Notes: generated by a model from the sequence alone, not told the origin. Counted from the first letter of the stretch, positions 276 through 35,402 are shown. The stretch: DNA of 37,230 nucleotides from a virus (IMGVR_UViG_3300034682_000022:1-37230), one strand, 5' to 3'. Numbers and translations are program-made.

Positions 276-330
276 ATTGATAGCTGCTAGCGCTTGTTGC
301 ATAAGCGCTAGCAGCATATTTTCTATCAAT
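276..330. repeat. REP-like palindrome / possible bidirectional terminator between convergent genes
   Basis: Perfect 13-bp inverted repeat GCTGCTAGCGCTT (283-295) / AAGCGCTAGCAGC (303-315), plus outer ATTGATAG/CTATCAAT. It resembles intergenic palindromes of Acidovorax/Comamonas (recalled, not searched). Confidence 0.7.
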
Positions 331-6300: not shown

Positions 6301-9300
6301 GATTGTTCTGGCGGTACTCGCGCGCTTCCTTCACCGTAGCGAATGGACCTTCCAGCTTCGCGTAATTGCGGCCGATCTTCTTGCCGATGAAGAAGCCATT
6401 GCTGGTGCGCTCGCTGAAAATGTCGAACGATGCCTTGCGCACCGCGTTCTGCAGGTCCAGCGAGTCGTACTTTTCCCGGAACGCGGCCAGCGCCTGCTCC
6501 TTGGTGTCGCCAATGGCAATCTCTCGCGGCCAGTTGCTGAACGCCGAAGCTCCCGCATCTTTCTCGACCACCCACAGATTCACGTTTTCGCGCCCACGGT
6601 AGAGCGTGTAATGGTGCTCAGCGAATCGCACACCCTCCAGTGACTTAGCGTGTCCCACCAGCTCATACAGCTCGATGCGCCCCATCATCCCGCGCAGGCT
6701 GGTGCCCTTGTTGGCCCCCATGCGCTCCATGTCCTGCACGGTGATCTTGCCGTCCATCACATCATTGGCCAGCCCGCGCAGGGTCTTCACCTGCTCAGCC
6801 CAGCGCTTGACCTTCCAGGCGGCACGCGGCTTTGCGGGCACCTCGTCGCGCAGCGCGCGCACGGCGGCCACGGCCTTCGCATCCATGCCTGCGTCGATGA
6901 GTTTCTGATAGTCCGGCGCAGGCCACACCTTGGCCAGCGGCTGCCCGGCAATGTCATCGTCCATCACCTTGTTCAAGTCGTCCTTGAACCCTGACCACAC
7001 ATCCTTGCGCGCGCCGCCGATCTTTTGGCCGAAGTCAGTGATGGGAGCACCAGCCGTTGCGGTGGCTGCTGGTTTCGCGGCAACCGTTGGCTTTGTTGCC
7101 CCCTGCTCCACAAACCCATCAGCCACAACCTTGGCCATGCCCACTTCCTCAGCCAGCTTCTTGGCTTGCGCCAGCGCTCCGAAAGTCTTGTCCTCGCCAT
7201 CCACCATCCAGGCGGTTGCACTGCGGTCGCCCTTGGAAGCCTTGGCAACGATCATCCGGCCACGCTTGGCGTCCTTGTCTGCCTGCGATTCGTAGAACGT
7301 CAGCGCGTGGGTTTTGACGCCATCCTTTTGGCCCAGGTCTTCCCAAGCCATCAGGGACTTGGCTTCGGCGGGAGTCAGTTTGGGGGTGTCTGGTTGCGCT
7401 GCTGGCTTTACCAACGAACGTGCACCGTTCGGCTTAGCCGCTGTAACAACTCCTTCGCGCTCCATGCGGTCCAACAGCGCATTGACTTCAGCATAACTGA
7501 CACCAAGCGCGTCCTGAATAGCCGGGCGCTTGACCTCACCTGTGCTGCGCACAAACTCCACTGCTCTAGCGTAGGGCCCCTCTTGTTCGTCGTTAGCCTG
7601 ACCAGCTCGGGGCGCAGCACTGGGCGAATTCTTCACCGCCTCCAACGCCTGCTCCACCGGCGCATCCAGCACGATGGCCTTTACGGGCTTGCCTTCTTCG
7701 GCAGCTGCCAGAGCTTGGTGGTGACCGTCGATGATGTGCCCATCGCTGGAAACAATCACGGCCCGGTCACCTGCAGCAGTCTTGGCGGCTTCCACCTTGG
7801 CGGGGGAATACTCGGCCTGTGTGGGCTTCAACTCGGCCGCTTCAACCATCGTGGTTTCGTGGGCGATACCCTGAGCATTCAGGTGCTTGACCAAGCCGCC
7901 ATGCGACTGGCTTGGGATCTGCGGCATTTCGGCGCGTGGTATGCCCAGCGTGCCAGTTTCAGGCGCAAATTGCTGCTCGTCGCCAACTGGCACGGACTGA
8001 GGCTGCGGCGTGTCATTTGCTACATTTTCAATAGCTGCTTGCGCTTTATCTGTGTCGGTCTGCGGTTCTTTTTGTGGACTTTTCGCAGTTACCCCAGCGG
8101 TTTCCACGGCGCCGGTTCCGGCTGCGGGTGCAGTGGTGGCTGGGCCTGCGGGCTGTGCTCCCACAGCTTGCGCCGCTTGGCCTGGCTGGCTGACAGCTGC
8201 GGCTGCTTGAGGTACTTCGGGTGCTTGCGGTACGTCTTGGACATTCACTGGCTCCTGGGGGCGAACAACAAAGCCGCCTTCCACCGGCACCACGGCGCCG
8301 GGCGTCTTCTTGGCGGCACGGTCTGCTGCCATGCGGGTCTTGAACGGCTCACCGGCCGGGTTCAGGATGTCGGTGGGCGCTGGTGTGGCCATGCCCTGGG
8401 CTGCTGCGCGGGCCAAGCGGTCTGCCACCGGGTCGGTCTGCGCTGGCGCCTCGGCTGCAGCGCGGGCAATGCGCTGCTCTGGTGTCAGCCCCCGCTCAGC
8501 CTGCATGCGCTGCTGCACATCGGCGGGAGTAATCCGGCCAGCGTCAAAGTCGCGCACGTAGGCCCGAGCTGCTGGCGTGTTCACGCCGCGCAGGTTGTCC
8601 AGATAGTTCTGCGCCGGGTCTGTTTGCAGATCCAGGCCCACACCATCCGTGCGGGTGCGTGGTGCGCGCTCCACGGGCGCAGCGTCTGCCTGCTGCATGC
8701 GGGCAATCGTTTCTTTCAGCCGGGCCTCGCCCTGGGCGGCCATGTCTGGCGTCACCCAACTGGGCGGAACCAGCACGAAGCCACCGCCAGGATGCTCGGC
8801 CACTGCCAAATCCAGCCCACGATTGCGGGCTTCGTCCAGCATTCGCGCTGCATCGCTGGCGGGCATCGGTGGACGCCGCTCGGCCACATTGGCCACATTC
8901 GTGATGCTGTTGGCCTGCGCTTCATTGTTCATGCCCAGCGCGCCAGCCAGCGGGTCGGCCCGCCCGGCCATGCCCCCACCGCCCAGCATGGAGCCCATGT
9001 CGGTTTCGGTCAGGCGCTCACCCAGCACAGGAGGCGGCGCATTCTCCGCCAGCAGCCGATCCAGCAATTTGCGGTTGTACTGCTGCACACCCTTGGCCAC
9101 GTCTGTTCTGTTCACCACAGCGTAGGCGCGCAGCGCGTCTTGGCGGGCACCATCCGGCAATGCCAGGATCTGATCGCGCACGGGGTCGTCCACCGCCTCG
9201 GGCGCTGCCTCGGCCGTCTGCTCTGATCCCGGCTGGATTGGCACTGGCGCGCCAGCTTCCACCGCTTGGGCTTTGGCCTCCACGCCTGCGTTCACAGCCT

Positions 9301-10348
9301 TGGTAAGTGCGCCAGACTCGGGCACCTTCTCTGTGGCGCGGATGGTGTCGGCGGCAGCTTGTGCAGGGGTACTCATGCCCTCAACGCCACCGGCCACGAT
9401 GGCACCAGGCCCCGCACCAATCGCGGTTTCCACCATCGTGCGGCCCAAGTCGTCCGTCAAACTGCGCGCCGGGTCGATCTTCCCGGCTTCGTAGTTCGTG
9501 GTGAGCTTTGGCGCCACTTCCTCGATCTGTTCGCCAGCAAGTTCTGCACCGAACGCTCCTGCAGTCCGTCGCAGCGCAGTTCCTGCTCCTGCACCTGGCT
9601 GACCTAGCAAAGCCTTCTCCAATCCCAGCTTGCCAGACACTGCGCCTGCCACTCCACCAACCACACCCGGCATGATGGAGCCGTCAAGCGCAACCTGCTC
9701 AGCCTGCTCAGCAGACATGCCCTGGGCCAGCGCGGCCCGCTTCAAGTCTTCATAGGCCTCACCGCGCGCCCCGCCTGCGTTCAGTGCAGCATTGGTGGCC
9801 ATCGCCGTGCGCGTGCCGTACTGCGCAGCCAGCGCTGCCTCGCCAGCAGCGCCCACACCGCGCGCGGCGGCCACACCCTTTGCCGCAGCACCTGCCAACG
9901 CCCCCGTGCCCAGAGTGGCTGCCATGCTCGGCAAGTTCGTCGCCACCAGGCGTGCCGCCTGCGCAGGGTCGTTCCAGTATTCAGATGCAGCGGTCCCGAT
10001 CTGGGACATCACACCTTCTTTGCCTGCCTCTTGAATGCGCTGATCGGTCGCAGCAATGCGCTTCTTGAGCACATCGCTCTGCTTGTCGCGCCAGTAATCG
10101 GCGTTGTCGCGGAAGAACTCCGCCGTGGCCCCATCAGGTGCAACGATGGATGGAACTGCACCAAGGGTGGTGTTTACGCCCTCGGCCAGCTGTACCACCG
10201 TATCGCCCACAGCCTGGCCCCAGGTGCGCTTTTCTGGCTCTGCGGCTGCAGTCGCCTCCGTTGACTCAGGTGTGTAAGCGATTCCCTCGTTGATGAGGTC
10301 TTGAATCGAGTAAGCGCGCTGCGGCGCCGCCTTTTTCTTTGTTGCCAT
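326..10348 (-). CDS. Giant polyvalent internal virion/ejection protein (3340 aa) with ParB-like, FtsK-gamma-like, LPD, two HExxH/HExxxH zincin, ART-PolyVal and PLxRFG domains
   Basis: Motifs: IVSSDGHIIDGHH (ParB-like, ~7625-7960); ITDFGQKIGGARKD; FGFRGVEFGNWV...GSLGHEWWHALD (~5890); HEVLGHYGL (~5050); VVYHGT...GFFFA...VMPVYLSLQNP...GHDGVI (ART-like, 2980-3575); YFPLARFG (~2400). ATG at 10348; alternative GTG at 10372. Confidence 0.9.
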   Translation of the reverse strand: MATKKKAAPQRAYSIQDLINEGIAYTPESTEATAAAEPEKRTWGQAVGDTVVQLAEGVNTTLGAVPSIVAPDGATAEFFRDNADYWRDKQSDVLKKRIAATDQRIQEAGKEGVMSQIGTAASEYWNDPAQAARLVATNLPSMAATLGTGALAGAAAKGVAAARGVGAAGEAALAAQYGTRTAMATNAALNAGGARGEAYEDLKRAALAQGMSAEQAEQVALDGSIMPGVVGGVAGAVSGKLGLEKALLGQPGAGAGTALRRTAGAFGAELAGEQIEEVAPKLTTNYEAGKIDPARSLTDDLGRTMVETAIGAGPGAIVAGGVEGMSTPAQAAADTIRATEKVPESGALTKAVNAGVEAKAQAVEAGAPVPIQPGSEQTAEAAPEAVDDPVRDQILALPDGARQDALRAYAVVNRTDVAKGVQQYNRKLLDRLLAENAPPPVLGERLTETDMGSMLGGGGMAGRADPLAGALGMNNEAQANSITNVANVAERRPPMPASDAARMLDEARNRGLDLAVAEHPGGGFVLVPPSWVTPDMAAQGEARLKETIARMQQADAAPVERAPRTRTDGVGLDLQTDPAQNYLDNLRGVNTPAARAYVRDFDAGRITPADVQQRMQAERGLTPEQRIARAAAEAPAQTDPVADRLARAAAQGMATPAPTDILNPAGEPFKTRMAADRAAKKTPGAVVPVEGGFVVRPQEPVNVQDVPQAPEVPQAAAAVSQPGQAAQAVGAQPAGPATTAPAAGTGAVETAGVTAKSPQKEPQTDTDKAQAAIENVANDTPQPQSVPVGDEQQFAPETGTLGIPRAEMPQIPSQSHGGLVKHLNAQGIAHETTMVEAAELKPTQAEYSPAKVEAAKTAAGDRAVIVSSDGHIIDGHHQALAAAEEGKPVKAIVLDAPVEQALEAVKNSPSAAPRAGQANDEQEGPYARAVEFVRSTGEVKRPAIQDALGVSYAEVNALLDRMEREGVVTAAKPNGARSLVKPAAQPDTPKLTPAEAKSLMAWEDLGQKDGVKTHALTFYESQADKDAKRGRMIVAKASKGDRSATAWMVDGEDKTFGALAQAKKLAEEVGMAKVVADGFVEQGATKPTVAAKPAATATAGAPITDFGQKIGGARKDVWSGFKDDLNKVMDDDIAGQPLAKVWPAPDYQKLIDAGMDAKAVAAVRALRDEVPAKPRAAWKVKRWAEQVKTLRGLANDVMDGKITVQDMERMGANKGTSLRGMMGRIELYELVGHAKSLEGVRFAEHHYTLYRGRENVNLWVVEKDAGASAFSNWPREIAIGDTKEQALAAFREKYDSLDLQNAVRKASFDIFSERTSNGFFIGKKIGRNYAKLEGPFATVKEAREYRQNNLPALEAKLEKYKEIPRERADVNQPRVGVDMRNGQDVTPQMFSDVFGFRGVEFGNWVEQKRRQKDLNDAFDALMDMAAVLDIPTKAISLNGKLGLAFGARGSGGVNPAAAHYEPDSVVINLTKKEGAGSLGHEWWHALDNYFAKQRKVNRGSFMTTGTDVGLAARGKDYYYEGGIRQEMIDAFGAVVKAINQTAMKARAAKLDGKRSKEYWTTGEEMSARAFESYLISKLQDQDASNDYLANVVSEKTWDAMAALGMENDGSYPYPTAAEIPAIRAGFDHFFQTVETKEDDAGNVAMFSRVPAGLTADEAVAMFNAANPASPEASSADRRMSDERKSAAERMVTGLRQRWSKAPEIIVARNMQDDQIPQAVRDYDTTLKSQGATGEARGFIYKGKVYLLSEQLNGARDVAEVLFHEVLGHYGLHGAFGDALTPILKQVAALHKPAVQAKAQEYGLDMANEAQRLQAAEEVLAEMAQTKPELGYVKRAIAAIRTWLRANVPGFKRLALTDAEIIRSYILPARGFVERGRVASGAAVGALDPAFSLGAGGMQSGGLAPMSPSPAKTPLYEAFRQLARFGDAFQLRGSNATELADIAQDMQEGVTQAAKFTAGPSTALHRGTRKKTLALYTDGLDGEQHKLLDIFEADSGRPFVVIGNSDVGQDKGGAKAYQIAFAWAHNNGKTMRPDPAGLTVINRLRRSEAMISSALRFGTTRHLEPHADQYIALAPTTRRLGAEPEDTHYSGNPQLHGELEAIKEKLWTPGDGAATIATNVQHLIEASAQIARMREPALRDLEVVGGTLRNRRLESSVPLGDLDAGAQDATRSLAGVALQPSRTGVGRTTAIRYAITASVARAVSDGPSASTGADRQERGGRGPGDAAAVRAIGQTLGRLDGGAPAGLNGILYSRTAGDQTQTDAFKRWFKGSKVVDAEGKPLVVYHGTNADISVFDPNKLGKASGAQSAKLGFFFASDPAVASSYANTFDEYRDTKLGRFMQRITFGAFEPFSEGVLRLVGKTAKNTGGNVMPVYLSLQNPKIVDYAGADYRDRTYAEVIQEAKAAGHDGVILRSTYDAGYVDGGDALTDVYVVFDNTQVKSTIGNNGDFDPANPDIRFSRTTDAAKAVGDTLKSITATHIKQRAGFKLTDYLGIGLQALGRRQIVDIYGDLVPLAEYNRLVQQMEADKNEGGAEADQLVTRWAKLDDEAKLADLMHDATLAQIDPAEDLVDGDDKGKYLELRRKYNLLSDDAKKVYADTRDSYKSHHAKVRSAIKERIERSEIKGERKAALLKQMDDEFFKAVKGVYFPLARFGQYAVTVKGPDGKVESVSRAETKAEAEALRNNLLSAFPRDKGFTVGRVMLSKDFIADRDAVGRGFMTELYQVLDKQDMDAAQRAELEDTLGQLYLSSLPDLSWAKHGIHRKGTPGFSQDARRAFAQNMFHGARYLAKLRYSDLMQDELAAMQRHVDDWREVEDFDQNSAQRVVDEMNKRHESLMNPKSNPVSTALTSLGFVFHLGLSPASAMVNLSQTALVAYPIMGAKWGYGKASAALLKASAEAAKGKNDITASLNADELAAYNEAVRAGTIDVTMAHDLAGIAQGEDMGVMWKIRPVMRWASFLFHHAERFNRQVTFVAAYRLAREAGADHKAAFEQATKATYDGHFDYGAANRPRFMQGNVAKVLLLFKQYGQNMVYTLARNAQQAIKGESPEVRAQARKALGGLLATHAAAAGVLGLPMVTTLLAAASMIGGDDDEPWDAKVALQNMLADTLGQKPAEVLAHGLSRLTPWDISGRVGLDRLIFPDVQEGLEGQRLGEAAMAAALGPVAGIGINVLKGLQDMSQGQYARGLEAMMPAALRGPIKAIRYESEGVQDKTGVVIQDEVSLAGVAGQFLGFSPSEVRNATEGKSAIYQQDRALGERRQELLAKAARATMAKDAEARAEAMQEIQRFNQKNPGQRITPLNVLQSVRNRQKRIDQAEGGVYLPKNRRDAMEAGRFAVVD

Positions 10349-10389
10349 GTGCCGGGCCTTGTGGCGGCCCACCGCGGGCCGTACCGGCT

Positions 10390-10419
10390 ACTCTGGCCCC
10401 GGTTTCCTCGGAGTCAACG
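10390..10419 (-). promoter_or_regulatory. Putative phage late promoter (CGTTGACTCCG box) for the giant gene
   Basis: CGTTGACTCCG at 10419-10409; TTGACT-16 nt-CAGAGT; intergenic. Confidence 0.7.
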
Positions 10420-12278: not shown

Positions 12279-13007
12279 TCAGCTCCTTATTTCGGCGTCA
12301 AGTTCATCTAGGTGCGACTGCAGCGCAAGCCTCATCGACCGCAGACTGTTTTTGTGCGAATCCAACAGGTGCGGGTGCTTAGCCCGCAAATATGCAGATT
12401 TCCCATCTCCCCACCAGGCCGTGCAGCCCATGCACTCGGGGGCACTGATCTTGTGGAAGTGGTCATAGATAGCGTTCTTTGGCGCGCCAACCTGGGCCAA
12501 ATAGTCAAAAACCTGTTGGTGCGTCCAATGCTTGATGGGGAGTAACACGTCATAAAACGGTGTCACGCCCTCAACAGGGATCTTCCCGCCATCGCAGACT
12601 TTGGTGCCGCGAATGACAGCATCCACACCATCGTCCACCATGCGGCGGTGCAATGGCTCCATGATGTTGTGATAGCAGCAGTCAAAGCGGTTGGTCAGCT
12701 GCACATCACCAAGACCATGCAGCACCCCTATGAAATGGGAGTTGGCTGGCAGCAAGTCGGTAGGCTGGCCATACGTTTCGCGCCACGCCTTCACATCCGA
12801 TCGCACCTCGATGAAGTTTGGAATCCACTGGCGCACCTCATCCACTACCGCCAGCGTTTCGGGCGGAGTTTCCCCGGCGTTCAGCCAGTACACAGCCGTC
12901 TTGTCCAACTGGTCGCGCAACAAATAAAGGCAAGCCAGCGAATCCTTCCCGCCAGAAAACTGCAAAGCAGGCGCCTTGAACCGGCTTAAATCAATTTGTG
13001 CCATCAC
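12279..13007 (-). CDS. PAPS/APS reductase family (PP-loop) protein with a CC-X80-CXXC motif
   Basis: FSGGKDS PP-loop, DAVIRG, PIKHWTHQQVFDYL, C110-C111 and C192-x-x-C195. Confidence 0.85.
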   Translation of the reverse strand: MMAQIDLSRFKAPALQFSGGKDSLACLYLLRDQLDKTAVYWLNAGETPPETLAVVDEVRQWIPNFIEVRSDVKAWRETYGQPTDLLPANSHFIGVLHGLGDVQLTNRFDCCYHNIMEPLHRRMVDDGVDAVIRGTKVCDGGKIPVEGVTPFYDVLLPIKHWTHQQVFDYLAQVGAPKNAIYDHFHKISAPECMGCTAWWGDGKSAYLRAKHPHLLDSHKNSLRSMRLALQSHLDELDAEIRS

Positions 13008-14310: not shown

Positions 14311-14340
14311 ACTGTCGGGGAGGATTTGCCGGAGTCAACG
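14311..14340 (-). promoter_or_regulatory. Putative phage late promoter (CGTTGACTCCG box) for the GNAT/ejection module
   Basis: CGTTGACTCCG at 14340-14330; TTGACT-16 nt-GACAGT; intergenic. Confidence 0.7.
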
Positions 14341-25824: not shown

Positions 25825-25876
25825 TGCAATCGAGTTAACGATTGCAAGAATCCGCCATTTTTTCCCGGAGTCAACG
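25825..25876 (-). promoter_or_regulatory. Putative late promoter (CGTTGACTCCG box) plus leader hairpin
   Basis: CGTTGACTCCG at 25876-25866; TTGACT-16 nt-GATTCT; inverted repeat TGCAATCG/CGATTGCA at 25825-25846. Confidence 0.7.
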
Positions 25877-27164: not shown

Positions 27165-28274
27165 TTAGACGGCGGCGGTGTAGGCCGTGTCCACAGTGAT
27201 CTGGCCGTAGTCCAGACCGTCGAACTGGGACTTGTCAGCGCCGAAAATCATCTCGAAGAACAAGATGTGATCGTGCTTGCGGTCGTCCATGTCTTCGTCC
27301 AGGCTCACCGACATACCATCGGCCATACCCTTGGTGCCGTGCGCGATGGAAACAGCGTTGGCGCCCATGAACAGCGAACGGGCAGCAGCGACATTGCCGC
27401 CAGAGCCGTAGTCGTTGAACTTCACGCCCACTTCCATTTCGTCAATCAGCACGCCGTTGAACATCCCGGCGCCGCCCTTGAAGATCTCGGACTCTTTGCC
27501 CACAGCAGCGGTCAGAGCCTTCTGGGCTTCAAACCAGCCTTGTGCGCCCACATCGTCGCGGATGTCCTGCATCACTTCGGGTAGCACAGCCAAAATGAAG
27601 CAATCCTTGCCGCCCTTGCGAACGGCCGTCATCTTCACAGGCTTGTCCTTGCCGCCCAGCATCTTCTTGGCCTTGGTGCGCAGCTTGTTCACCGTGGCAA
27701 GAGTCATCTTGTCGGTGCCTGCCAGGGTGGCTTTGGCCTTGGAGCCATCCGCGCCCACAAACAAGTGGGCAGCATCAGGGGCGCGCAGGGCGTTGGGGTA
27801 GCCCGCGTAGTCAGCGCCGAAGTGGCTGATCTCATCACCCACACCGCGGGCGCCGGATGCAGCGGTCACGATGACCTGCTCATACAGCTCCTTGATGTAC
27901 TCGGTCAGCTTCTCGCGGCCCTGCTTCTTCAGGTTGTAGCCCACGCGCGACTGCTCGATGCGTGCACCGACGTTCACGCCATGGCGGAACTCGTTGATGC
28001 GCATCGTGTGTGCGGCGTGCTGCAGCTTGAACTCTTGGCCCGCGAGTTTCTGGCCCTCGGTGATGGGGGCGCCGCGCAGCTTGGCCACCAGTGCGGTGGT
28101 CACTTCATCGCCGGCGCCCTTTTCCAGTTCCGTCTTCTTGATGACGGCAGAGCGCGAGCCTTCTTCACCCACCAGGCGGGCGAAATACTGCTCTTGGGCA
28201 GCGTCGTTAGCTACTGCCGCTGCCCAGGCTTTACGCTTGTTCGGGTCGTTCGGCAAAATTGTCGTGCGGCTCAT
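27165..28274 (-). CDS. Major capsid protein, N4-gp56/DUF4043 family
   Basis: ELEKGAGDEVT..LV.KL.G.P..G...L.G.E; W.EAQK...IFKG..GM.NGVLI; DYGQITVDT; AAGGAG SD. Confidence 0.9.
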   Translation of the reverse strand: MSRTTILPNDPNKRKAWAAAVANDAAQEQYFARLVGEEGSRSAVIKKTELEKGAGDEVTTALVAKLRGAPITEGQKLAGQEFKLQHAAHTMRINEFRHGVNVGARIEQSRVGYNLKKQGREKLTEYIKELYEQVIVTAASGARGVGDEISHFGADYAGYPNALRAPDAAHLFVGADGSKAKATLAGTDKMTLATVNKLRTKAKKMLGGKDKPVKMTAVRKGGKDCFILAVLPEVMQDIRDDVGAQGWFEAQKALTAAVGKESEIFKGGAGMFNGVLIDEMEVGVKFNDYGSGGNVAAARSLFMGANAVSIAHGTKGMADGMSVSLDEDMDDRKHDHILFFEMIFGADKSQFDGLDYGQITVDTAYTAAV

Positions 28275-28279
28275 GTGTT

Positions 28280-28316
28280 ACTCCTTGTCCAGCACAGTGA
28301 CGCACTCCTGCGCGCC
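28280..28316 (-). promoter_or_regulatory. Capsid leader with AGGA-loop hairpin and CsrA-like site over the SD
   Basis: GGCGCGC-AGGA-GTGCGTC (28316-28299) and ACAAGGAGT (28288-28280). Confidence 0.6.
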
Positions 28317-28317
28317 G

Positions 28318-28342
28318 AAAAACCCCCAGCGGGATGCCAGGG
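28318..28342 (-). terminator. Weak intrinsic terminator/attenuator-like hairpin before the capsid leader
   Basis: CCCTGGC-ATCCC-GCTGGGG (two G-U pairs) followed by GTTTTT. Confidence 0.4.
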
Positions 28343-28344
28343 CC

Positions 28345-28551
28345 TTACAAAGCTGGCTCAGTTCGCCGCCTGCTCTCGGGCTTGCCCACCCTCACGGAAG
28401 GGCTTGCCTGAATACGCACGCGGGCCTTGCGTCCATCTTTGGATTCGAGTATTAGCACAATTTTTTCGGAGTCAACGCCATTGATTCCGCGCAGGCAAAC
28501 GGATTCGCCCTCGCGGATCTCAACCACCAGCCCCGGCTTGTTTTGGGCCAT
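28345..28551 (-). CDS. CsrA/RsmA-like small RNA-binding protein (68 aa)
   Basis: LVVEIREGESVCL...IVLILESKDGRKARVRIQASPSVRVGKPE aligns by eye with CsrA LILTRRVGETLMI...[29 protein letters not shown]; TAATG-coupled to the scaffold gene. Confidence 0.7.
   Translation of the reverse strand: MAQNKPGLVVEIREGESVCLRGINGVDSEKIVLILESKDGRKARVRIQASPSVRVGKPESRRRTEPAL
28448..28477 (-). promoter_or_regulatory. Putative late promoter (CGTTGACTCCG box) inside the CsrA-like gene, pointing at the capsid gene
   Basis: CGTTGACTCCG at 28477-28467; TTGACT-16 nt-AATACT. Confidence 0.65.
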
Positions 28552-29411
28552 TACTCGTCCAGCAAAGCTGCCTGCTGTGCGGGCGTCAACTTGGCATAGG
28601 CGGCCTCGTAGGCGGGTCCCTTGAGGCGTGCAATCTGCTCGATCACCCCGCCTGTGTTCGGCGTGGACGCACTGGGCAGGCTGCGCAGCGTCACTGGCAC
28701 ATCACCTGCAGGCTTGCGGTCGGATGCTGGCGCCTTGGCCTGGGACTGCACGCCACGCATAGCCTTGACCATCTTGTGCGCGTCCTCGATCAAGTCTGCG
28801 AAGTCCTTGCCAGCATTGGCAGGCTGTGCGGCCAGCACCTGCAGGCTGGTGTCGAACTGCTGCTGCGCCGTGGCATCCGTGGCATAGTCCACCTCGCCCT
28901 TGGTGTTCGCAATCAGCCGCTGAATGGCGCGGGCTTGGTACGCCTGCTGAGACTGCGCATTGGCTTCTTGCAAAGTCTCTGCACGGATGCGCGCTGCTGC
29001 CAAGTCCTCCAGCGCCTCTGACACACGGGCATCCTCGGCCGCGTAGGCTTCCGCATCAATCTCTCCGTCCATGAGTTGCTTCATGGCCTCGGCCTTGGCC
29101 TTCATCAGCTCTGCACGCTGGGCTTTGTAGTCTGGTGGCACCTCGGCTTTGTATGTAGGCAGCTCGGCTGCTTCGGTGCTAGCGGCAGCGGGGGCAGGAT
29201 CAGCTTCGGCCTGCTCTGCCTCGGCAGTCGGCGCATCGGCTGCGGCCTGCTCTGCTTCGGGTTCTGCTGCAGCCTCGGGCGCTGCCTCAGAGGCTGGCTC
29301 GTCTGCGTCAGCCTCCACGGTCAGCGGTTCATCATCGCCAAACGGGTCTTGGCCAGCGGCCTGCGCGGCGGCAATGGCTTCAAGTGCTTTGAGGTCTTCG
29401 GGTGTGCTCAT
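28551..29411 (-). CDS. Capsid scaffolding protein (286 aa)
   Basis: Acidic Ala/Glu-rich N-terminus and coiled coil, ending in P.TLRSLP...YEAAYAKLTPAQQAALL; lies between portal and capsid. Alternative GTG at 29420. Confidence 0.8.
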   Translation of the reverse strand: MSTPEDLKALEAIAAAQAAGQDPFGDDEPLTVEADADEPASEAAPEAAAEPEAEQAAADAPTAEAEQAEADPAPAAASTEAAELPTYKAEVPPDYKAQRAELMKAKAEAMKQLMDGEIDAEAYAAEDARVSEALEDLAAARIRAETLQEANAQSQQAYQARAIQRLIANTKGEVDYATDATAQQQFDTSLQVLAAQPANAGKDFADLIEDAHKMVKAMRGVQSQAKAPASDRKPAGDVPVTLRSLPSASTPNTGGVIEQIARLKGPAYEAAYAKLTPAQQAALLDE

Positions 29412-29415
29412 GGTT

Positions 29416-29429
29416 CTCACTCCTGCGAG
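29416..29429 (-). promoter_or_regulatory. AGGA-loop hairpin containing the scaffold SD
   Basis: CTCGC-AGGA-GTGAG, 4 nt upstream of ATG 29411. Confidence 0.6.
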
Positions 29430-29441
29430 GTTGGTGGTGGG

Positions 29442-29828
29442 TTATTGGTTAGCCAGCTGGCTGCGCAGCTCGTAGCCCATCAGCGGCCAAATCTTCTGCA
29501 CAGCGTTCTGGCGGGCAATCTTGCGGCCCACCTCGGCGTCGAAGTTCTCTGGGCTGGCGCAGGCGCTCTCGCCGGTCACGGTGAAGCCGTTGCGCAGGAC
29601 CAGCACGCAGAAGGTGAGAAGGCCCAAAGGCGCAAGATCGGCATTGCCCTCCACGGGACGCTCCCTGCCCACGTACGCCTCGTTTGTCAGCGCACCCAGC
29701 CTGCCGTCTCGGGCCGTGAAATAGTGCTCGCTGGCGATGTTCGCCTCAATGTCCGCAGGCGTCACGCGCGGCGCTGTCAGGCCCTTGGCCTGGATCTCTT
29801 GCTCGATAGTTTCGTTGATGGTGCTCAT
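29442..29828 (-). CDS. Gp49 family protein (N4 gp49/Sf6 gp66-like)
   Basis: APRVTP..IE...LTFCVLVLRNGFTVTGESACASPENFDAEVGRKIARQNAVQKIWPLMGY; GAGG SD. Confidence 0.88.
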   Translation of the reverse strand: MSTINETIEQEIQAKGLTAPRVTPADIEANIASEHYFTARDGRLGALTNEAYVGRERPVEGNADLAPLGLLTFCVLVLRNGFTVTGESACASPENFDAEVGRKIARQNAVQKIWPLMGYELRSQLANQ

Positions 29829-29872
29829 GTAAACCTCGGTGTTCATGGGTGGGATTGGTGAAATTACGCAGG

Positions 29873-30097
29873 TCATTGGCAGGCCTCACAAGTGCCATCG
29901 CCAGACAAGTCGCATGCCTTCCCTAAAGGGAAGTCGTCGGCCTGAGCCACCAGGTCCAGTTCGCCCAGTCGATGCAGCTGGGTCTGGCCATCCCATGCGC
30001 ACAGGGCCTGCTGGCCATCCAGGCTGGTGATGGTCATGTCTGGGCCGCCGCTCTTGTGGCGCACGGTGTCTCCTGTGGAAATTGGGGTCGCTGTCAT
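29873..30097 (-). CDS. YodC/DUF2158-like small protein with a C-terminal CxxC tail
   Basis: GDTVRHKSGGPDMTI...CAW; ends ACDLSGDGTCEACQ; ATGA overlap with the portal gene. Confidence 0.75.
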   Translation of the reverse strand: MTATPISTGDTVRHKSGGPDMTITSLDGQQALCAWDGQTQLHRLGELDLVAQADDFPLGKACDLSGDGTCEACQ

Positions 30098-32280
30098 TGC
30101 TGTGGTGGTAGTGGTTGCTCAATCAGGTTTTGCTCTACGCCATCGGCCATGGGTGTCTGGCTGCCCGCCATGGCGCCGTCCATCTGCTGCATGTCGGGGA
30201 TGGGCTCCTGCATGGGCGGCTGCATCGGCGCAGGTTGTGCTGCAGGCATTGCGGCCGGGTCAATCACACCCTGGCCATTCATGTCCTTGAACCCCACCGA
30301 CTTCAGCAGCTCGTCAGCCACGGGCGTGATCTGCGGCGCCATCGCCAGCACCTGCGCAGCCTGGGCCGACAGGTACAGCCCTTCCAGGCGCTTGGCCATG
30401 GCATCGGCTTCCAGCTTCTCACCCTTGGCCTGGGCTTCGCGAATCTGCGCTTGGAGTTGTGCCATCTGCGCCTCAAACTGGGCCTGCGCCATCTGCTGCT
30501 TCTGCTGCATCTCGGCTTGCTGCTCGGGCGTCATCTTCCCGGTGTCATCGGCCTGGCCATTCACCGAACGGATGCGCTTCAAGATTGCCTGCTTGCGCGG
30601 CAGGTTCGGATGCATCTCGAAAATCACGTCCAGCAGGTTGACCACGATTTGCGGCGCAGCGCTGGCCAGCTGGGTCATCACCTGCATCAGCTGCTCAAAG
30701 GCCGCTTCGGCAAAGGACTGTTTCCAGGCCTGCTCGCCCACGGTGAAGTGCGCCTGGCGCTGGGTGATGTCGTTCAGATACGTGCCGTCAGGTTGTGGTT
30801 CATTGATGCGCGTGTACTCATTGCGCCCGTTGTCGCCGCTGGTGCGCACCGTCATGGGCTGGGTAATGAACTGCTCAGCCAGGCTCAGCGCCATCTCGCC
30901 CTCCATCTGCCGGGCAAACAGCAGGTTGTCGAACAGCTCCATTGTCAGCAGACTGCCCTGCTCCTGCTTAGCCAGCACAGCGCGCCCACTGGTCACATTG
31001 GAGTCCAGCCCCCGGTTGTCTGGGGTAACGCCCGACATTTGCCGAATAGCCGACTGGTCGTATTGCGCCAGGTTCAACTGGAATTGGGCGCTCTGGTTGT
31101 TGTCCCGGTCGCGCACCTTGCCGCCAGCCAGCGCCCCACGGGCAAACACTGCCGTGCCGTGCGGGTCATCCAGCTCGCGCCGGATCTCGTCAATGTCCAT
31201 CACCTCGGGGTTGAAGGAGTCTTCTTCCATCAGCAGCTGGTTGGCGCTGGCCTCATACAAACTGCGGCTCATGCGATGGTTCAGCGCCTCCTGCGGCCCC
31301 ATCAGCTGGCAGATTGGGCTATACGGCAGGCCGGTGCGCTTGTTCCGGTAGGCCCAATACGGGATGAATGGGAACCGGTCATGCTTGAACGGGCTCCACG
31401 ACTCAATCAGCGTGTCCTTCTCCGTCATGATGGAGCACATGATGCGCCAGGTCATCGGGTCGGCAATGCCAAACGGCCCCGGCTCCTTGTTGTGAAAAGG
31501 CTCACGGCTCCAGCACTCCAGCAGCAGCACGCGCTCGCGGGTGTTGAACATGTCCACCGGCTTGGCCGTCAGGTAGTCCAGCTTGTCATCCTGGCTGCTG
31601 AAAGCATCCAGGCCAGCAATCAGCCCCGTGCCCAGCCAATTGCGCAGAATCTCCGCATCGTCGCCGTTCTGTGCGCAGGCTTCCAGCTTGTCCTTCTTGT
31701 CCGGGAACAGCGCGATAGCCACATCCAGGTCCACAACCTTGATGCGGAACAGGTAGCGGGCGTCAGACAGATCCCGCTTGGTGGCCATGCTGTCCCACAG
31801 GATGTTTCGCCACGATTCAGCACCGATATAGACCGGCGCGCCGTTCTTATCACCACGCAGGCCCACCTCAATCCAGCCGATGCCAGCCTTAAAAGCGTCC
31901 TCGGCTGCATAGCTGCGCTCAAAGCTGGCCCGGTTTGTCTCGTCCAGGTACTTGAGCAGCTTGGTCTTGAGCGTGGCGTCCGTGTCAGCTTCCTCGCCCT
32001 CGTCGTCGGCCACCACCAGAAAATCCACCCGCGTCTTGCGCTCGGTGCCGATCAGCCAGTCAATCGTGGGCTTGACCTCGTTGTAAACCACCACCGGCTG
32101 GCCACGGTCGCGCAACTCCTGGGCGTCGTCAAACTCGTACTGGTTGCCGTCGTAGAAGCTTTCCGAGCGCGCCATCATTGCTCTGTTAGCCGATTGCCTA
32201 GCGGCCTCAGCCAAAAACCAACTCCTTCGCTTGTCGTGTCGCTCCTGAACGGACGCTTCATCTTTTTTCAGGCCATCCAT
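30094..32280 (-). CDS. Portal protein (728 aa)
   Basis: FYDGNQY...RGQP..VYNE.KP..DW..G.E; G.GW; HDRFPFIP; PQ..LN.RMS; SGRA....QEQG; Gln/Met-rich tail. Confidence 0.92.
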   Translation of the reverse strand: MDGLKKDEASVQERHDKRRSWFLAEAARQSANRAMMARSESFYDGNQYEFDDAQELRDRGQPVVVYNEVKPTIDWLIGTERKTRVDFLVVADDEGEEADTDATLKTKLLKYLDETNRASFERSYAAEDAFKAGIGWIEVGLRGDKNGAPVYIGAESWRNILWDSMATKRDLSDARYLFRIKVVDLDVAIALFPDKKDKLEACAQNGDDAEILRNWLGTGLIAGLDAFSSQDDKLDYLTAKPVDMFNTRERVLLLECWSREPFHNKEPGPFGIADPMTWRIMCSIMTEKDTLIESWSPFKHDRFPFIPYWAYRNKRTGLPYSPICQLMGPQEALNHRMSRSLYEASANQLLMEEDSFNPEVMDIDEIRRELDDPHGTAVFARGALAGGKVRDRDNNQSAQFQLNLAQYDQSAIRQMSGVTPDNRGLDSNVTSGRAVLAKQEQGSLLTMELFDNLLFARQMEGEMALSLAEQFITQPMTVRTSGDNGRNEYTRINEPQPDGTYLNDITQRQAHFTVGEQAWKQSFAEAAFEQLMQVMTQLASAAPQIVVNLLDVIFEMHPNLPRKQAILKRIRSVNGQADDTGKMTPEQQAEMQQKQQMAQAQFEAQMAQLQAQIREAQAKGEKLEADAMAKRLEGLYLSAQAAQVLAMAPQITPVADELLKSVGFKDMNGQGVIDPAAMPAAQPAPMQPPMQEPIPDMQQMDGAMAGSQTPMADGVEQNLIEQPLPPQQ

Positions 32281-32282
32281 GA

Positions 32283-32783
32283 TTACGCCGTCCTTAGTTC
32301 TGGGTTGAATGTGTGATGTATGGCTTTGGCTGCCTTGTAGGCATCATGAGCCTCTTGTTCGGTAGCGAAATAGCCCAAATGCTTTTTCCGACCGCCTATC
32401 TGTATCTGCGCCGACCACTTCCCCGTCCGCGCAAGAAACGATGCACCAATTAGGCTGTTGGCGCCTTTTGGTGTCGGAGAGATGTTTTCCAGGTTCTGCG
32501 CATGCGTCGCTTCTCGTAGGTTGCAAAGGCGGTTATCCGACCTATTGCCATTGATGTGGTCGATCTCCCTTGGGAGTCGCCCATAAACATAGAGCCACGC
32601 TAGCCGGTGCGCGTACTTGTTCCCACCGTTCCAGTTCACCGTTTTGTACCCAAGCACTTTGTCGATGTGACCGACCTTCTCGCCAGCCTTTTTGCAGCGC
32701 CCATCAACTGCGCGGAAAAAGTCGCCCGTTTCAGGGTCGTAGCGCAATTCGTGGCGCAGCTTTTTTTGCAATTCAATGGTCAT
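32283..32783 (-). CDS. HNH homing endonuclease with AP2 domain
   Basis: LRYDPETG.F; YAHRLAWLYVYG..P.EIDHINGNRSDNRLCNLREAT; KWSAQI...KHLGYF.TE.EA..AY. Confidence 0.93.
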   Translation of the reverse strand: MTIELQKKLRHELRYDPETGDFFRAVDGRCKKAGEKVGHIDKVLGYKTVNWNGGNKYAHRLAWLYVYGRLPREIDHINGNRSDNRLCNLREATHAQNLENISPTPKGANSLIGASFLARTGKWSAQIQIGGRKKHLGYFATEQEAHDAYKAAKAIHHTFNPELRTA

Positions 32784-33280
32784 ACTTCGGCCTCGTTGAG
32801 CACCTTGCCGGTGTCTTTGTTAGTGGCTGTCACCTCCCACATCGCGGGTGTGTCCAGGGCTTGTTTGATGTACTTGGGGGTGGCCGGCATCAGCACCAGC
32901 TCTGGCGCGAACGTCACCACCACATCCACCAGCTCATGCAGCGCGGCTTTGTCGTTCACATCCTTGCCCAGCAGCGGCAAAGCCTCGCGCGCCTCGCGGA
33001 AACAGTGCTCCGACGGCCCGCCCGTGCATTTGTCGTCTTTGTTGAAGCCCACGAATTCAGTGATGCAGTTGCGGGTGATCGTCCAAATGCCCTGCCCTTC
33101 GCCGGTCACGAACACATTGCTGGCAGGCCAAATGCACATCGCAGCGCGGATGTGCTTGCCCAGGCGAATCCACTCAAGGCTCACAACGTAGCCATGCTTC
33201 ACTGCGGTTTTGTAGGCCTGGTTGCCACCCACGGAGAACATGGGCTCGCCGCTGGGCGACAGGACGGGGGAAATGTTCAC
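32780..33280 (-). CDS. Hypothetical phage protein (166 aa)
   Basis: ORF with phage-like codon usage that fills the gap between terL and the HNH gene; GGAG SD. Confidence 0.75.
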   Translation of the reverse strand: MNISPVLSPSGEPMFSVGGNQAYKTAVKHGYVVSLEWIRLGKHIRAAMCIWPASNVFVTGEGQGIWTITRNCITEFVGFNKDDKCTGGPSEHCFREAREALPLLGKDVNDKAALHELVDVVVTFAPELVLMPATPKYIKQALDTPAMWEVTATNKDTGKVLNEAEV

Positions 33281-33285
33281 GGCGG

Positions 33286-34569
33286 TTATCTCCAGCTACG
33301 TTTTCGGTTTTTGAATGCGGTCACGGAGTCGCTGACCGTGCTGGTCATCAGATCCACGGCTTGGCCCAGATAGCGGAAGGCGTCTGCGCCGTGGCTGTAC
33401 TCGTCGTGCAGCGGGGCGCCCGGCTCGTTCGTCTTCTGATTGATGTCGCGCCGGTAGCGTTTCAGGCACTCCACCAGACGCAATGTCTTCTCTTGGTCGA
33501 AGTAGCATTTGGGGAACAACAGGCGCGCGGCCTTGATTCCTTCCTCAATGCTGGTCTGCGGCAGCACATGCACCGTGCGGCCCATGTCTTTCAGCAGCTC
33601 CTCGGTGCTCTTGCCGGTCTGGAAGTTGCGTGTGCGCCCGTCGTGCGGCAGAAAGTCGGTGCCCCAGCGGTACGGGTTGCGCTCCAGCTGGCCCACATAC
33701 CAGTCCAGCGTGCGGTTGCTGTCCTCGATGTAGCCAATGACGCGCACCTCGCGCGGCCCGCGCTGCGCCAGGATGATGGTCATGGCGTCGTTCCAACCCA
33801 AGTCCCAGATGCTGTGCACAGGCAACTCCGGGTCGTAGGGCACCAGCCTCACGCGCTTGTCGGTGTAAAGCTGGTCAATCTCATGGCGGTAAATGGCGCC
33901 TTCGGCCACGCGGCGGGGCTTGCCTTCCCAGATGTGGTCATAGCTCACTGGGTCCAGCGCCTGCGCCTTCACCCGCTCTTGCTCCAGCACCGCAGGAAAC
34001 CAGGGGTTGTCCCGCCAGTTAATCTCACACGTCCAGGTGTCAGGGCTCGGCGTGGCAATGAAGCGCTGCCACGTCTCGTCCGTGTCCATGTCCGGGTTCA
34101 GCGTCAGCCATATCTCCGACTCAGGCTTACGGATGGTCGGGATCAGCGTGTCCCAGCTCTTTTTGCTCACGCCATGGGCTTCTTCCACCCACACGATGTC
34201 ACAGCCTTCAAAGGATTTGATGGAGTCCACCGTGTGCTCCTGCAGGCCAGTGAACAAGAACAACGACCCGTTAGCGCCACGGATTTCGTTGTCCAGGATC
34301 TCGAATTCATCGGTCAGGTTCAGCGCCACCACCTGGTCCTTGAGCAGTCGGTGCACCGAGTCGCGCATGGACTTTTGCACCTCACGGGCGCACAGGATGC
34401 GCAGCGGTCGGTCAGCGGCCATCAGCAGCAGCGCGCGGGCCACGGCCCAGGACTTGCCGCCACCCCGGCCGCCGTGCATCACTTTGTAGCGGCGCGGCTG
34501 GAATAGCGGGCGCAGCTTTGCCGGGAACTCGGCGCGGATTTCCAGCACGTCTGACTGCTCTGCAATCAT
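33286..34569 (-). CDS. terL: Terminase large subunit (PBSX/Terminase_3 type)
   Basis: GGRGGGKS Walker A, CAREVQKSMRDSV, VWVEEAH Walker B, LTLNP, WDLGWND and SHGADAFRY nuclease motifs. Confidence 0.95.
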   Translation of the reverse strand: MIAEQSDVLEIRAEFPAKLRPLFQPRRYKVMHGGRGGGKSWAVARALLLMAADRPLRILCAREVQKSMRDSVHRLLKDQVVALNLTDEFEILDNEIRGANGSLFLFTGLQEHTVDSIKSFEGCDIVWVEEAHGVSKKSWDTLIPTIRKPESEIWLTLNPDMDTDETWQRFIATPSPDTWTCEINWRDNPWFPAVLEQERVKAQALDPVSYDHIWEGKPRRVAEGAIYRHEIDQLYTDKRVRLVPYDPELPVHSIWDLGWNDAMTIILAQRGPREVRVIGYIEDSNRTLDWYVGQLERNPYRWGTDFLPHDGRTRNFQTGKSTEELLKDMGRTVHVLPQTSIEEGIKAARLLFPKCYFDQEKTLRLVECLKRYRRDINQKTNEPGAPLHDEYSHGADAFRYLGQAVDLMTSTVSDSVTAFKNRKRSWR

Positions 34570-35243
34570 TGCGGCTTGGCCTCAACATCAATGAAATCCA
34601 CCACGACACGCTTGGGGCGGCTGTCACCGAACCCCGCATCGTCTTCAATCCGATAGGCTTTGCGCTCGCCTTCTTGAATCTTGATGAACGTCTCGGCCAA
34701 GGCTTTGATACTGGAAATTCTGGAGTTGATTGACAGCGCCTTGCTGACTACAGCCCGCGCTTTGGACTCATCCGCAGGCTCTGCGCCCTCTCCTGCCAGG
34801 ATGGCTGCCAGCAGCTCCTGCTCTTGCGCTGCCAGTGCAGATGCAGACAACTCATGGAGAAGTGATGCAGCCACATCCCGCGTGGCGGACAGGTCGCGGC
34901 GATGGCCGCTCAGAACCTGCTTGTTAAGCTCTGCAGCCGCCAAGATCACATCAGTGACCTGCGTGTGACCTTCTGTGATCTTTTGCGCAACCGTCTCCTG
35001 CATCAGCAGGGCGTTGGTGGCTGCGCGAACTTGGGGGCCCAAGTCTTGCGCCCAGGCGGTCGGATCTTTGGCTTGTGCGTCTTTGCGGTGCCGCACAATG
35101 GACTCACGGGCAACCCCATGCTTTGCAGCCAGCTCGATGTCGGTGAACTTGCCGGTGCGGAAATCCCGCTCTACGGCTGCCCAATCTACTCGTCGTGCTC
35201 GCTTGCCTGCCGGTGCCGCACTCCTGCGCGGGCTTGATGCCAT
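34566..35243 (-). CDS. terS: Terminase small subunit
   Basis: DWAAVERDFRTG...ELAAKHGV.RESI HTH; C-terminal ERKAYRIED; ATGA overlap with terL. Confidence 0.82.
   Translation of the reverse strand: MASSPRRSAAPAGKRARRVDWAAVERDFRTGKFTDIELAAKHGVARESIVRHRKDAQAKDPTAWAQDLGPQVRAATNALLMQETVAQKITEGHTQVTDVILAAAELNKQVLSGHRRDLSATRDVAASLLHELSASALAAQEQELLAAILAGEGAEPADESKARAVVSKALSINSRISSIKALAETFIKIQEGERKAYRIEDDAGFGDSRPKRVVVDFIDVEAKPQ
35216..35231 (-). promoter_or_regulatory. AGGA-loop hairpin in the first codons of terS
   Basis: CCGCGC-AGGA-GTGCGG, with the same CGCAGGAGTG core as the scaffold and capsid sites. Confidence 0.55.
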
Positions 35244-35304
35244 GAAGAAACCCCGTTGAATTGACTATCTGCCAATTGCAACGGGGTTTTCTTCGGAGTC
35301 AACG
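35244..35304 (-). promoter_or_regulatory. Putative late promoter (CGTTGACTCCG box) overlapping a ~20-bp inverted repeat/terminator that abuts the terS start
   Basis: CGTTGACTCCG at 35304-35294; TTGACT-16 nt-TGCAAT; arms GAAGAAACCCCGTTGAATTG (35244-63) and CAATTGCAACGGGGTTTTCTTC (35273-94). Confidence 0.75.
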
Positions 35305-35332: not shown

Positions 35333-35402
35333 GTGCGCGAATGGGGGATTTGAACCCTACCTCGCATATCTGCTCGCGCCACACACTAGCTTTCGCATGC
35401 AC
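35333..35402 (-). ncRNA. Degenerate tRNA-like element (pseudo-tRNA)
   Basis: GGGTTCAAATCCC T-loop and terminal pairing TGCGAA/TTCGCG; no clear D-arm or anticodon arm and no CCA. Confidence 0.45.

Follow-up and report, generated by a model that had tools for sequence, protein, structure and literature searches.

A divergent phage CsrA-like gene and covarying CGC-loop-GUG hairpins at head-gene starts as a candidate phage-autonomous Csr-type circuit

Introduction

The canonical ligand of CsrA is a hairpin that carries GGA in its loop, within the consensus RUACARGGAUGU, in which both ACA and GGA were 100% conserved (PMC4347634). CsrA homologues have been listed in about 1% of phage genomes, and the catalogued phage csrA alleles include those of GP4, DC1, Bcep22, BcepIL02, PEp14, Pavtok and Skulduggery (PMC7366521). 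Here we analyze a viral contig of the IMG/VR database, IMGVR_UViG_3300034682_000022 (37,230 nt, with an estimated completeness of 61% and a GC content of 61%; this whole stretch is called the window), in which a gene for a 68-amino-acid (aa) divergent phage CsrA-like protein, here named csrL, lies between a scaffold-like gene and the major capsid gene. Three small hairpins with a common CGC-loop-GUG core are found in the same strand, one in the capsid leader, one at the Shine-Dalgarno sequence (SD) of the scaffold-like gene and one in the first codons of the first late gene, and they could be the targets of this protein.

Phage CsrA-like proteins have been discussed as host-directed accessory genes (PMC11879866, PMC8310193). 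A review ties the DC1 copy to biofilm (PMC8310193), and in CSP3 the gene has been noted upstream of the capsid gene (PMC10269572). According to a 2025 study, the contribution of these proteins to the phage cycle had not been tested; knocking down the homolog of a different phage reduced plaque size (PMC11879866). Moreover, Burkholderia hosts have been described as lacking a chromosomal csrA (PMC7366521). We found no description of a cis-regulon in the literature on phage CsrA together with capsid, and the word "capsid" is absent from the text of PMC7366521. What appears to be new are the operator-like hairpins, the fact that they accompany the gene, and the promoter-like motif embedded in it.

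Results and Discussion

Three hairpins with a common core are conserved as RNA structures

All the morphogenesis genes of the window are on the minus strand, and on this strand the 10-mer CGCAGGAGTG is present in exactly three copies (28303-28312, 29418-29427, and 35219-35228). A first-pass annotation of this DNA had reported these three occurrences and their extension, by different complementary flanks, into AGGA-loop hairpins, and both are found where it had placed them (Table 1). The repeat was expected 0.23 times, and three copies were reached in 0 of 100 shuffles. However, a triple 10-mer is by itself unremarkable in a window of this GC content, as 229 different 10-mers are present in three or more copies, whereas 200 shuffles gave 62 on average and 84 at most. 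The hairpin regions fold no better than shuffled sequences (z of 0.00, 0.23, and 1.19), and the terS hairpin is not part of the minimum free energy (MFE) structure of its 66-nt context. What argues for the hairpins is therefore the combination of structure and conservation. A structured motif defined post hoc as CGC-[AT][AG]G[AG]-GTG with at least two outer pairs is present at three sites of the window versus 0.087 expected, and 0 of 300 shuffles reached three.

The three hairpins recur at homologous places in related loci (L0xx labels refer to such loci, taken from IMG/VR and from two bacterial genomes). In all three site classes the inner pairs C-G, G.U and C-G are invariant and the outer pairs covary. 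In the scaffold SD class, 98.6% of the cells are paired among 14 distinct sequences, with 11 changed on both sides (UA, GC, and AU at one pair, CG and AU at another); the figures are 93.9% and 13 for the first late gene (14 distinct sequences) and 99.1% and 17 for the capsid leader (33 distinct sequences), and in each class they were reached by 0 of 500 shuffles. Shifting the 3' partners by one to three columns abolishes the covariation signal in every class, and RNAalifold recovers the capsid-leader hairpin independently. Judged from these alignments, the hairpins are conserved RNA structures with covariation. The first-pass annotation had named covariation in gene-carrying relatives as a check on its proposal, and it is found in all three classes; relatives without the gene lack the hairpins or have degraded ones.

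Because the sequence is an imperfect inverted repeat, it could be argued that the repeats are a DNA operator, or else a chance SD-like word, as AGGAG resembles an SD and many 10-mers recur in the window. In 26 loci of the family (278 kb, some of them nearly identical), the motif was found 60 times on the coding strand and never on the other one. Furthermore, the invariant G.U pair and the additional G.U pairs would not match in DNA or on the opposite strand. Together, the invariant G.U and the strand asymmetry of 60 to 0 indicate a coding-strand RNA and not a DNA operator. With the covariation preserving RNA pairing, and the positions conserved in relatives, we consider a DNA operator or a chance word very improbable.

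According to the first-pass annotation, the hairpins mark the starts of head and packaging genes. This holds for the subfamily of the window, in which all three are present, but just the hairpin of the capsid leader is general, and the sites at the scaffold SD and in the first gene are limited to this subfamily. The scaffold-SD hairpin is missing or altered in L009, L026, and L087 and was absent from the 11 more distant phages examined. The hairpin of the first gene lies 9-15 nt past the AUG, always encodes Arg-(Arg/Lys)-Ser, and is retained irrespective of the protein family to which the first gene belongs. In L002 (602-1901) and L019 (1946-3195) an unrelated open reading frame (ORF) of 182-222 aa precedes the terS homolog, and the first 8-10 codons, which contain the hairpin, are common to the differing first genes, which suggests a recombination boundary just past the hairpin. 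We also considered AGGAG at the terS site as the SD of a later start, and rejected it as there is no in-frame ATG, GTG or TTG beyond. In the capsid leader, GUGC(U/C) follows the hairpin by 2-5 nt in most relatives with variable spacing (28290-28298, minus strand, in the window). A short upstream ORF starting from the conserved GUG/AUG after this hairpin was discarded, because its frame, length, and stop vary among relatives.

csrL encodes a divergent member of the phage CsrA-like family

The translation of csrL is MAQNKPGLVVEIREGESVCLRGINGVDSEKIVLILESKDGRKARVRIQASPSVRVGKPESRRRTEPAL, and the translation and the neighboring gene calls bear out its placement between the scaffold-like and capsid genes. 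The order scaffold-csrL-capsid is retained in every related locus that holds the region. The protein (P0001) has 106 close homologs, all of them unnamed and none with a precomputed Pfam domain. A tblastn search against 50,697 phage records gave nothing at E≤1, as the divergence of the family exceeds what a search with one sequence can bridge, and a sequence-profile search of the PDB with the family alignment returned no CsrA, just three unrelated rows. The match of P0001 to phrog_8397, "CsrA-like regulator", has an E-value of 0.0089 and 17 bits, with no stretch passing alone. Weak matches to the Pfam CsrA family (PF02599) were obtained for 11 of 32 members of the close family, the best at E 0.0029 and none over the curated cut-off, which is 27 bits.

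The link to CsrA is provided by the relatives. Among 18 syntenic proteins, 12 match Pfam CsrA and five of them exceed the cut-off (L077, 30.3 bits; Bcep22, 32.3; NK-7, 29.1; Itty13, 29.8; and Parlo, 30.4). When profiles were compared with hhalign, the family of the window (the A1 profile) aligned to nine named phage CsrA-like proteins with a probability of 95.9% (P 5e-9), and these same nine proteins aligned to 24 CsrA sequences with a probability of 97.0% (P 1.1e-10). Searching 1.84 billion protein representatives with the A1 profile yielded 104 cluster representatives at E≤1e-3, and PF02599 was found at E≤0.01 in 30 of the 103 that were scanned (P0069 was left out), being the sole recurring family. 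On this profile bridging, the csrL protein belongs to the phage CsrA-like family as a divergent member and is homologous through it to CsrA, so that the CsrA likeness claimed by the first-pass annotation is supported: orthologs pass the Pfam cut-off, the profiles bridge, and the top structural matches (see below) are CsrA chains. The protein family itself is already annotated, and what the window adds is a new divergent member.

Gene position agrees with this assignment. The slot between the scaffold-like and capsid genes holds a CsrA-like gene in Bcep22, DC1, CSP3, NK-7, PEp14, Itty13, Parlo, SopranoGao, and Skulduggery, and in these nine phages the gene directly upstream of the major capsid gene is annotated as "CsrA-like regulator" or "carbon storage regulator". 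The phrog_8397 members (Bcep22 gp54, DC1 gp46, CSP3 orf23, and those of GP4/NK-7, PEp14, Pavtok, Itty13, Parlo, SopranoGao, and Skulduggery) share with csrL both the profile homology and the arrangement portal, scaffold-like, X, major capsid. In contrast to them, the subfamily of the window is more divergent, has the two extra hairpin sites at the scaffold SD and in the first late gene, and bears the capsid promoter-like motif inside the gene instead of after it.

The capsid-leader hairpin accompanies the gene

All the phrog_8397 phages that were examined have a CGC-loop-GUG hairpin in the capsid leader. It was found in nine of the nine named phages in which it was looked for, just after a sigma-70-like promoter. 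Conversely, neither a CsrA-like gene in the whole record nor the hairpin was found in Stx2a_WGPS9, Vibrio D60, and Rhizobium RHph_Y1_10, whose capsids are homologous. The phages with capsids of the N4-gp56 type comprise 362 records, and 58 of these have the gene.

A promoter-like motif is embedded in csrL

The motif cgTTGACTCCGA/G is present in six copies on the minus strand versus 1.4 expected (0 of 100 shuffles reach six), each of them followed 17 nt on by a weak -10-like hexamer, and its reverse complement ranks with the most frequently repeated 10-mers there. These six copies are likely the late-promoter set of the phage; the one at 12301, directly before an SD and an ATG, may not be a promoter. 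Copies that read TTGACTCCGA lie upstream of terS and inside csrL (Table 1). All the complete csrL genes of the close family carry the motif at the V-D-S-E site, and GTT GAC TCC shows zero synonymous change in 17 sequences in which the neighboring codons vary, a comparison that is partly circular as the sequences were motif-anchored. At the corresponding place the distant csrL genes have GGTTGACTTCGG, and where csrL does not adjoin the capsid gene a TTGAC or TTGCA element is found in the intergenic leader instead. In L074/75, in which csrL has been lost, the TTGACTCCGA motif directly heads the capsid leader, and just a GVDSEK-coding, promoter-like piece remains of csrL. It is likely that the capsid mRNA also starts from the promoter-like element inside the csrL coding sequence. 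Contigs from RNA libraries (four runs) cover relatives of the capsid-csrL-scaffold region with 88-99% likeness, where DNA carry-over is possible, and are uninformative on the embedded promoter as they show no starts, strands or levels.

In the window and in 14 loci with an upstream TTGACTCCGA, the first-gene hairpin is always present, 66-136 nt downstream of the motif. The leader between the motif and the ATG of the first late gene (35244-35292, minus strand) contains an inverted repeat or hairpin that overlaps the -10-like region and is kept, with varying sequence, in L013, L016, L019, L020, and L026.

This proximity to promoter-like motifs, ahead of two of the three sites, would also be expected if the hairpins were sites for a different factor acting on transcription, as in nut/boxB-type antitermination or attenuation, with the CsrA-like protein being either that factor or unrelated. 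In addition, the capsid-leader hairpin comes immediately after a terminator-like hairpin with a U-run, a U-run follows the conserved hairpin itself in Parlo, PEp14, and Itty13, and the insertion of an HNH gene described below would be tolerable if the action were on the transcript and not on the capsid SD. Nevertheless, the scaffold site is the SD itself and has neither a promoter nor a terminator in its vicinity; no such hairpin accompanies three other TTGACTCCGA/G sites (25874, 14338, and 10417); and in the window the conserved hairpin comes after, not before, the terminator-like structure. We therefore regard a transcription-level factor as quite unlikely. Small hairpins with an invariant loop, repeated downstream of promoters in phage transcripts, are known from the lambda N-boxB/nut system; the locus described here differs from it in that one site is an SD, csrL is inside the late operon, and there is no boxA-like partner.

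A possible Csr-type circuit

We propose, with a probability of roughly 0.55, that the csrL protein binds the CGC-(A/U)GGA-GUG hairpins as a dimer and tunes the translation of the head genes, which would constitute a phage-autonomous Csr-type control. The putative recognition would involve the loop and the C-G/G.U/C-G core, and the hairpins would be bound as the csrL protein accumulates. Binding to the scaffold hairpin would occlude the SD and would also cut the synthesis of csrL itself, a negative feedback that we propose because the csrL start overlaps the scaffold stop (TAATG). In the first late gene, binding would fall within the ribosome footprint just past the AUG. A dimer at the capsid leader could engage both the loop GGA and the GGA of the capsid SD, which reads ACAAGGAGT in the window and is retained as AAGGAG or AAGGA in relatives; alternatively, it could act on the fate of the transcript beside the terminator-like hairpin. 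The step affected there may be initiation, the stability of the transcript or read-through at the terminator-like hairpin, and the sign of the effect could be either way. Such a circuit might set the scaffold:capsid:terminase stoichiometry, as the first-pass annotation had put forward. No CsrA was found in a Rhizobacter genome that contains a related prophage, and the proposed circuit would therefore be self-contained in that host.

Several features recall the CsrA/RsmA/RsmE systems: the small beta-rich csrL protein aligns over beta1-beta5 (LxVxxRxGE ... VxVx[K/R]), short purine-loop hairpins are at or near an SD, and the capsid leader has two GGA about 20 nt apart. One difference is that the putative targets of csrL are the phage's own head genes and not a global host regulon. 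Translational operators are well known in phages, such as the coat protein-replicase hairpin of MS2 and PP7, those of T4 RegA and gp32, and the autoregulation of the P22 scaffold. The circuit proposed here would resemble them in that a late phage protein is proposed to repress through a small start-site hairpin and to regulate itself, and would differ in that csrL has another fold, there are several sites per late region, and the regulator is non-structural.

The points that weigh against the csrL protein as a Csr-type binder of these hairpins concern the protein, the sites, and their association. With respect to the protein, P0001 has no Pfam CsrA match at E≤1, and a direct hhalign comparison between the family profile and 24 proteobacterial CsrA proteins gave just 31% (P 5e-4, residues 8-59 against 2-46). 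The AlphaFold2 model from a broad alignment (27 phage rows and seven CsrA rows, n=34) had a predicted local distance difference test (pLDDT) score of 81.3 and is partly circular, as CsrA rows were in its input. With this model, 10 of the top 12 Foldseek rows were CsrA/RsmA/RsmE, with probabilities of 0.96-0.97, template modeling (TM) scores of 0.5-0.7 and E-values of just 0.4-1. In a wide VIA search, which is independent of Foldseek, CsrA chains ranked first and second of 48,161 (Z of 5.8 and 4.7, the next being 2.9), the top one being 1vpz_A with a root-mean-square deviation of 3.5 over 54 residues; this Z of 5.8 is under the level that the tool deems safe. The model built from the close family only reached a pLDDT of 69.5 and consisted of one beta hairpin, for which Foldseek found nothing related. 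Structure prediction supports the CsrA likeness, though less strongly than the profile bridging via relatives.

CsrA binds RNA through residues of beta1 and beta5, namely Leu2, Leu4, Arg6, Arg7, Val40, Val42, and Arg44. In our alignment (A6), the corresponding csrL residues are L8 for L2, V10 for L4, the invariant R13 for R7, V53 for V40, V55 for V42, and K57 for R44, and Arg6 is lost, with I12 in its place. The first-pass annotation had aligned the protein along the whole CsrA fold, with Lys at the Arg44 position. The alignment over beta1-beta5 and Lys57 stand, the position being Lys or Arg in the family, but the C-terminal helix of CsrA is absent, none being predicted in the csrL model, and csrL has an 8-residue insertion between beta2 and beta3 relative to CsrA.

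With respect to the sites, the ACA of the canonical ligand is replaced by CGC at every phage site, and GGA is not invariant. The loops at the scaffold SD are AGGA in ten sequences and UGGA in four, and all of them contain GGA. In the first late gene they are AGGA in seven, AAGA in six, and AAGG in one, so that GGA is lacking in 7 of 14. In the capsid leader 26 of 33 loops have GGA, the other seven being AAGA (two), AAGAC (two), AUGA, AUGAC, and AGCA (one each). GGA-less capsid-leader loops are found in phages that carry the gene (L009, L082, L089, PEp14, Itty13, and Parlo). The first-pass annotation had seen CsrA-type GGA hairpins, and the GGA-loop architecture does apply to the window, where GGA is in a 4-nt loop at all three sites, but not the ACA, nor the constancy of GGA among relatives. 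Similarly to the CsrA site obtained by in vitro selection (SELEX), the phage hairpin has a 3-bp stem closing a 4-nt RGGA purine loop (PMC4347634), whereas its stem is CGC/GUG and not ACA/UGU and A or U is tolerated at the first G. From these comparisons, the phage site is a related operator-like site and not a canonical CsrA site.

With respect to the association, gene-hairpin co-occurrence rests on few independent events. Furthermore, the hairpin persists in L074/75 with no csrL nearby, in contigs that are fragmentary, so that a copy elsewhere is possible; the csrL slot is replaced there, the capsid-leader hairpin is kept with an AGCA loop, and the scaffold SD lacks the CGC/GUG core. In L074 an oppositely oriented gene of 305 aa fills the slot (1899-2816, minus strand of the locus). 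Finally, in L005-7, L060, and L086 the hairpin is separated from the capsid SD by an inserted HNH homing-endonuclease-like gene of about 185 aa, directly past the hairpin and about 570 nt ahead of the capsid start (L005-L007, about 4860-5410; L006, 3390-3947). That this insertion is tolerated argues against a strict need for proximity or bridging between hairpin and SD.

The survival of the hairpin in L074/75, the tolerated HNH insertion, and the existence of GGA-less loops would all fit with protein-independent cis RNA elements, such as a 5' stabilizer or processing element of late mRNAs or a loop-presented SD, in which case the CsrA-like protein would act on host mRNAs. The location of the hairpin at the capsid mRNA 5' end, right behind the promoter in the named phages, suits a stabilizer, and phage CsrA has been treated as a host-directed factor (PMC8310193, PMC11879866). 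However, a generic stabilizer does not need an invariant C-G/G.U/C-G core and a purine loop at three sites, the same core is found across phages with capsids that are just about 35% identical, and the hairpin is absent from the capsid relatives that lack the gene. In addition, the hosts of the subfamily and Burkholderia have no CsrA networks to hijack (the Rhizobacter genome; PMC7366521). We therefore consider such cis elements unlikely, less so than a transcription-level factor.

The binding of these hairpins by the csrL protein can be extended, tentatively and at somewhat less than even odds, to the CsrA genes of the Bcep22-like supergroup as a whole. These genes would be the trans-factor of a phage-autonomous Csr-type circuit and not a host-manipulating accessory, with a CGC-NNGA-GUG hairpin at the start of the capsid mRNA as the ancestral operator. 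Within the subfamily of the window the circuit would have extended to the scaffold SD and to the first late gene, and the promoter of the capsid gene would have been relocated into the reading frame of the regulator. The conserved capsid-leader hairpin thus offers a specific candidate target, and with it a first concrete job, for phage CsrA genes. Some of the phages that have it can be cultured, among them Skulduggery (which infects Pseudomonas fluorescens SBW25) and Parlo, and it is directly testable in them. If the proposal is true, it would provide a Csr-type protein with an altered operator (a CGC stem and a relaxed loop) in hosts without CsrA, together with a case of a promoter-like element that is embedded in, and constrains, the coding sequence of a regulator.

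Other features of the window

The order of the morphogenesis genes on the minus strand is small terminase, large terminase, HNH, P22-type portal, DUF2158 protein, gp49-like, scaffold-like, the 68-aa ORF, and major capsid, and the coordinates of the features discussed here are collected in Table 1.

Table 1. Positions of the genes, RNA elements, and promoter-like motifs in the window
Feature	Coordinates	Strand	Basis or remark
terS, small terminase; first gene past promoter-like motif	34566..35243	minus	phrog_1206 at 2.1e-29
Scaffold-like gene	28551..29411	minus	phrog_8246; ATG 29411
csrL, 68-aa divergent phage CsrA-like protein (P0001)	28345..28551	minus	translation, profile homology
Major capsid gene	27165..28274	minus	Pfam Phage_capsid_3 at 1.3e-45; phrog_334
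Capsid Shine-Dalgarno AAGGAG	28281..28286	minus	second GGA, 22 nt past capsid-leader loop GGA
Terminator-like hairpin and U-run, between csrL stop and conserved hairpin	28318..28344	minus	MFE; predicted
Capsid-leader hairpin GGCGCGC-AGGA-GUGCGUC, 7 bp including 2 G.U	28299..28316	minus	in MFE and RNAalifold consensus
Scaffold hairpin CUCGC-AGGA-GUGAG, 5 bp	29416..29429	minus	loop and 3' arm form scaffold SD AGGAG, 8 nt before ATG 29411
terS (first late gene) hairpin CCGCGC-AGGA-GUGCGG, 6 bp	35216..35231	minus	codons 6-9
Promoter-like motif copies	35293-35302, 28466-28475, 25865-25874, 14329-14338, 12292-12301, 10408-10417	minus	cgTTGACTCCGA/G
Promoter-like motif TTGACTCCGA inside csrL	28466..28475	minus	codons V-D-S-E, family-specific insertion
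Promoter-like motif TTGACTCCGA upstream of terS	35293..35302	minus	motif search

The stem of the terminator-like hairpin is preserved in relatives with differing sequences. A second HNH gene is present in the gap between terL and the portal gene (32283-32783). A scan of the window with Rfam gathering thresholds gave no match, and no sponge RNA was seen. At about 35340-35375 (minus strand), a stretch containing GGTTCAAATCC resembles the T-arm and 3' half of a tRNA and may be the core of an attachment site; ARAGORN detected no tRNA in the window. Downstream of one of the TTGACTCCGA motifs, a single ORF of 3348 aa occupies positions 326-10372 of the minus strand and recalls the giant polyvalent proteins of Bcep22-like phages.

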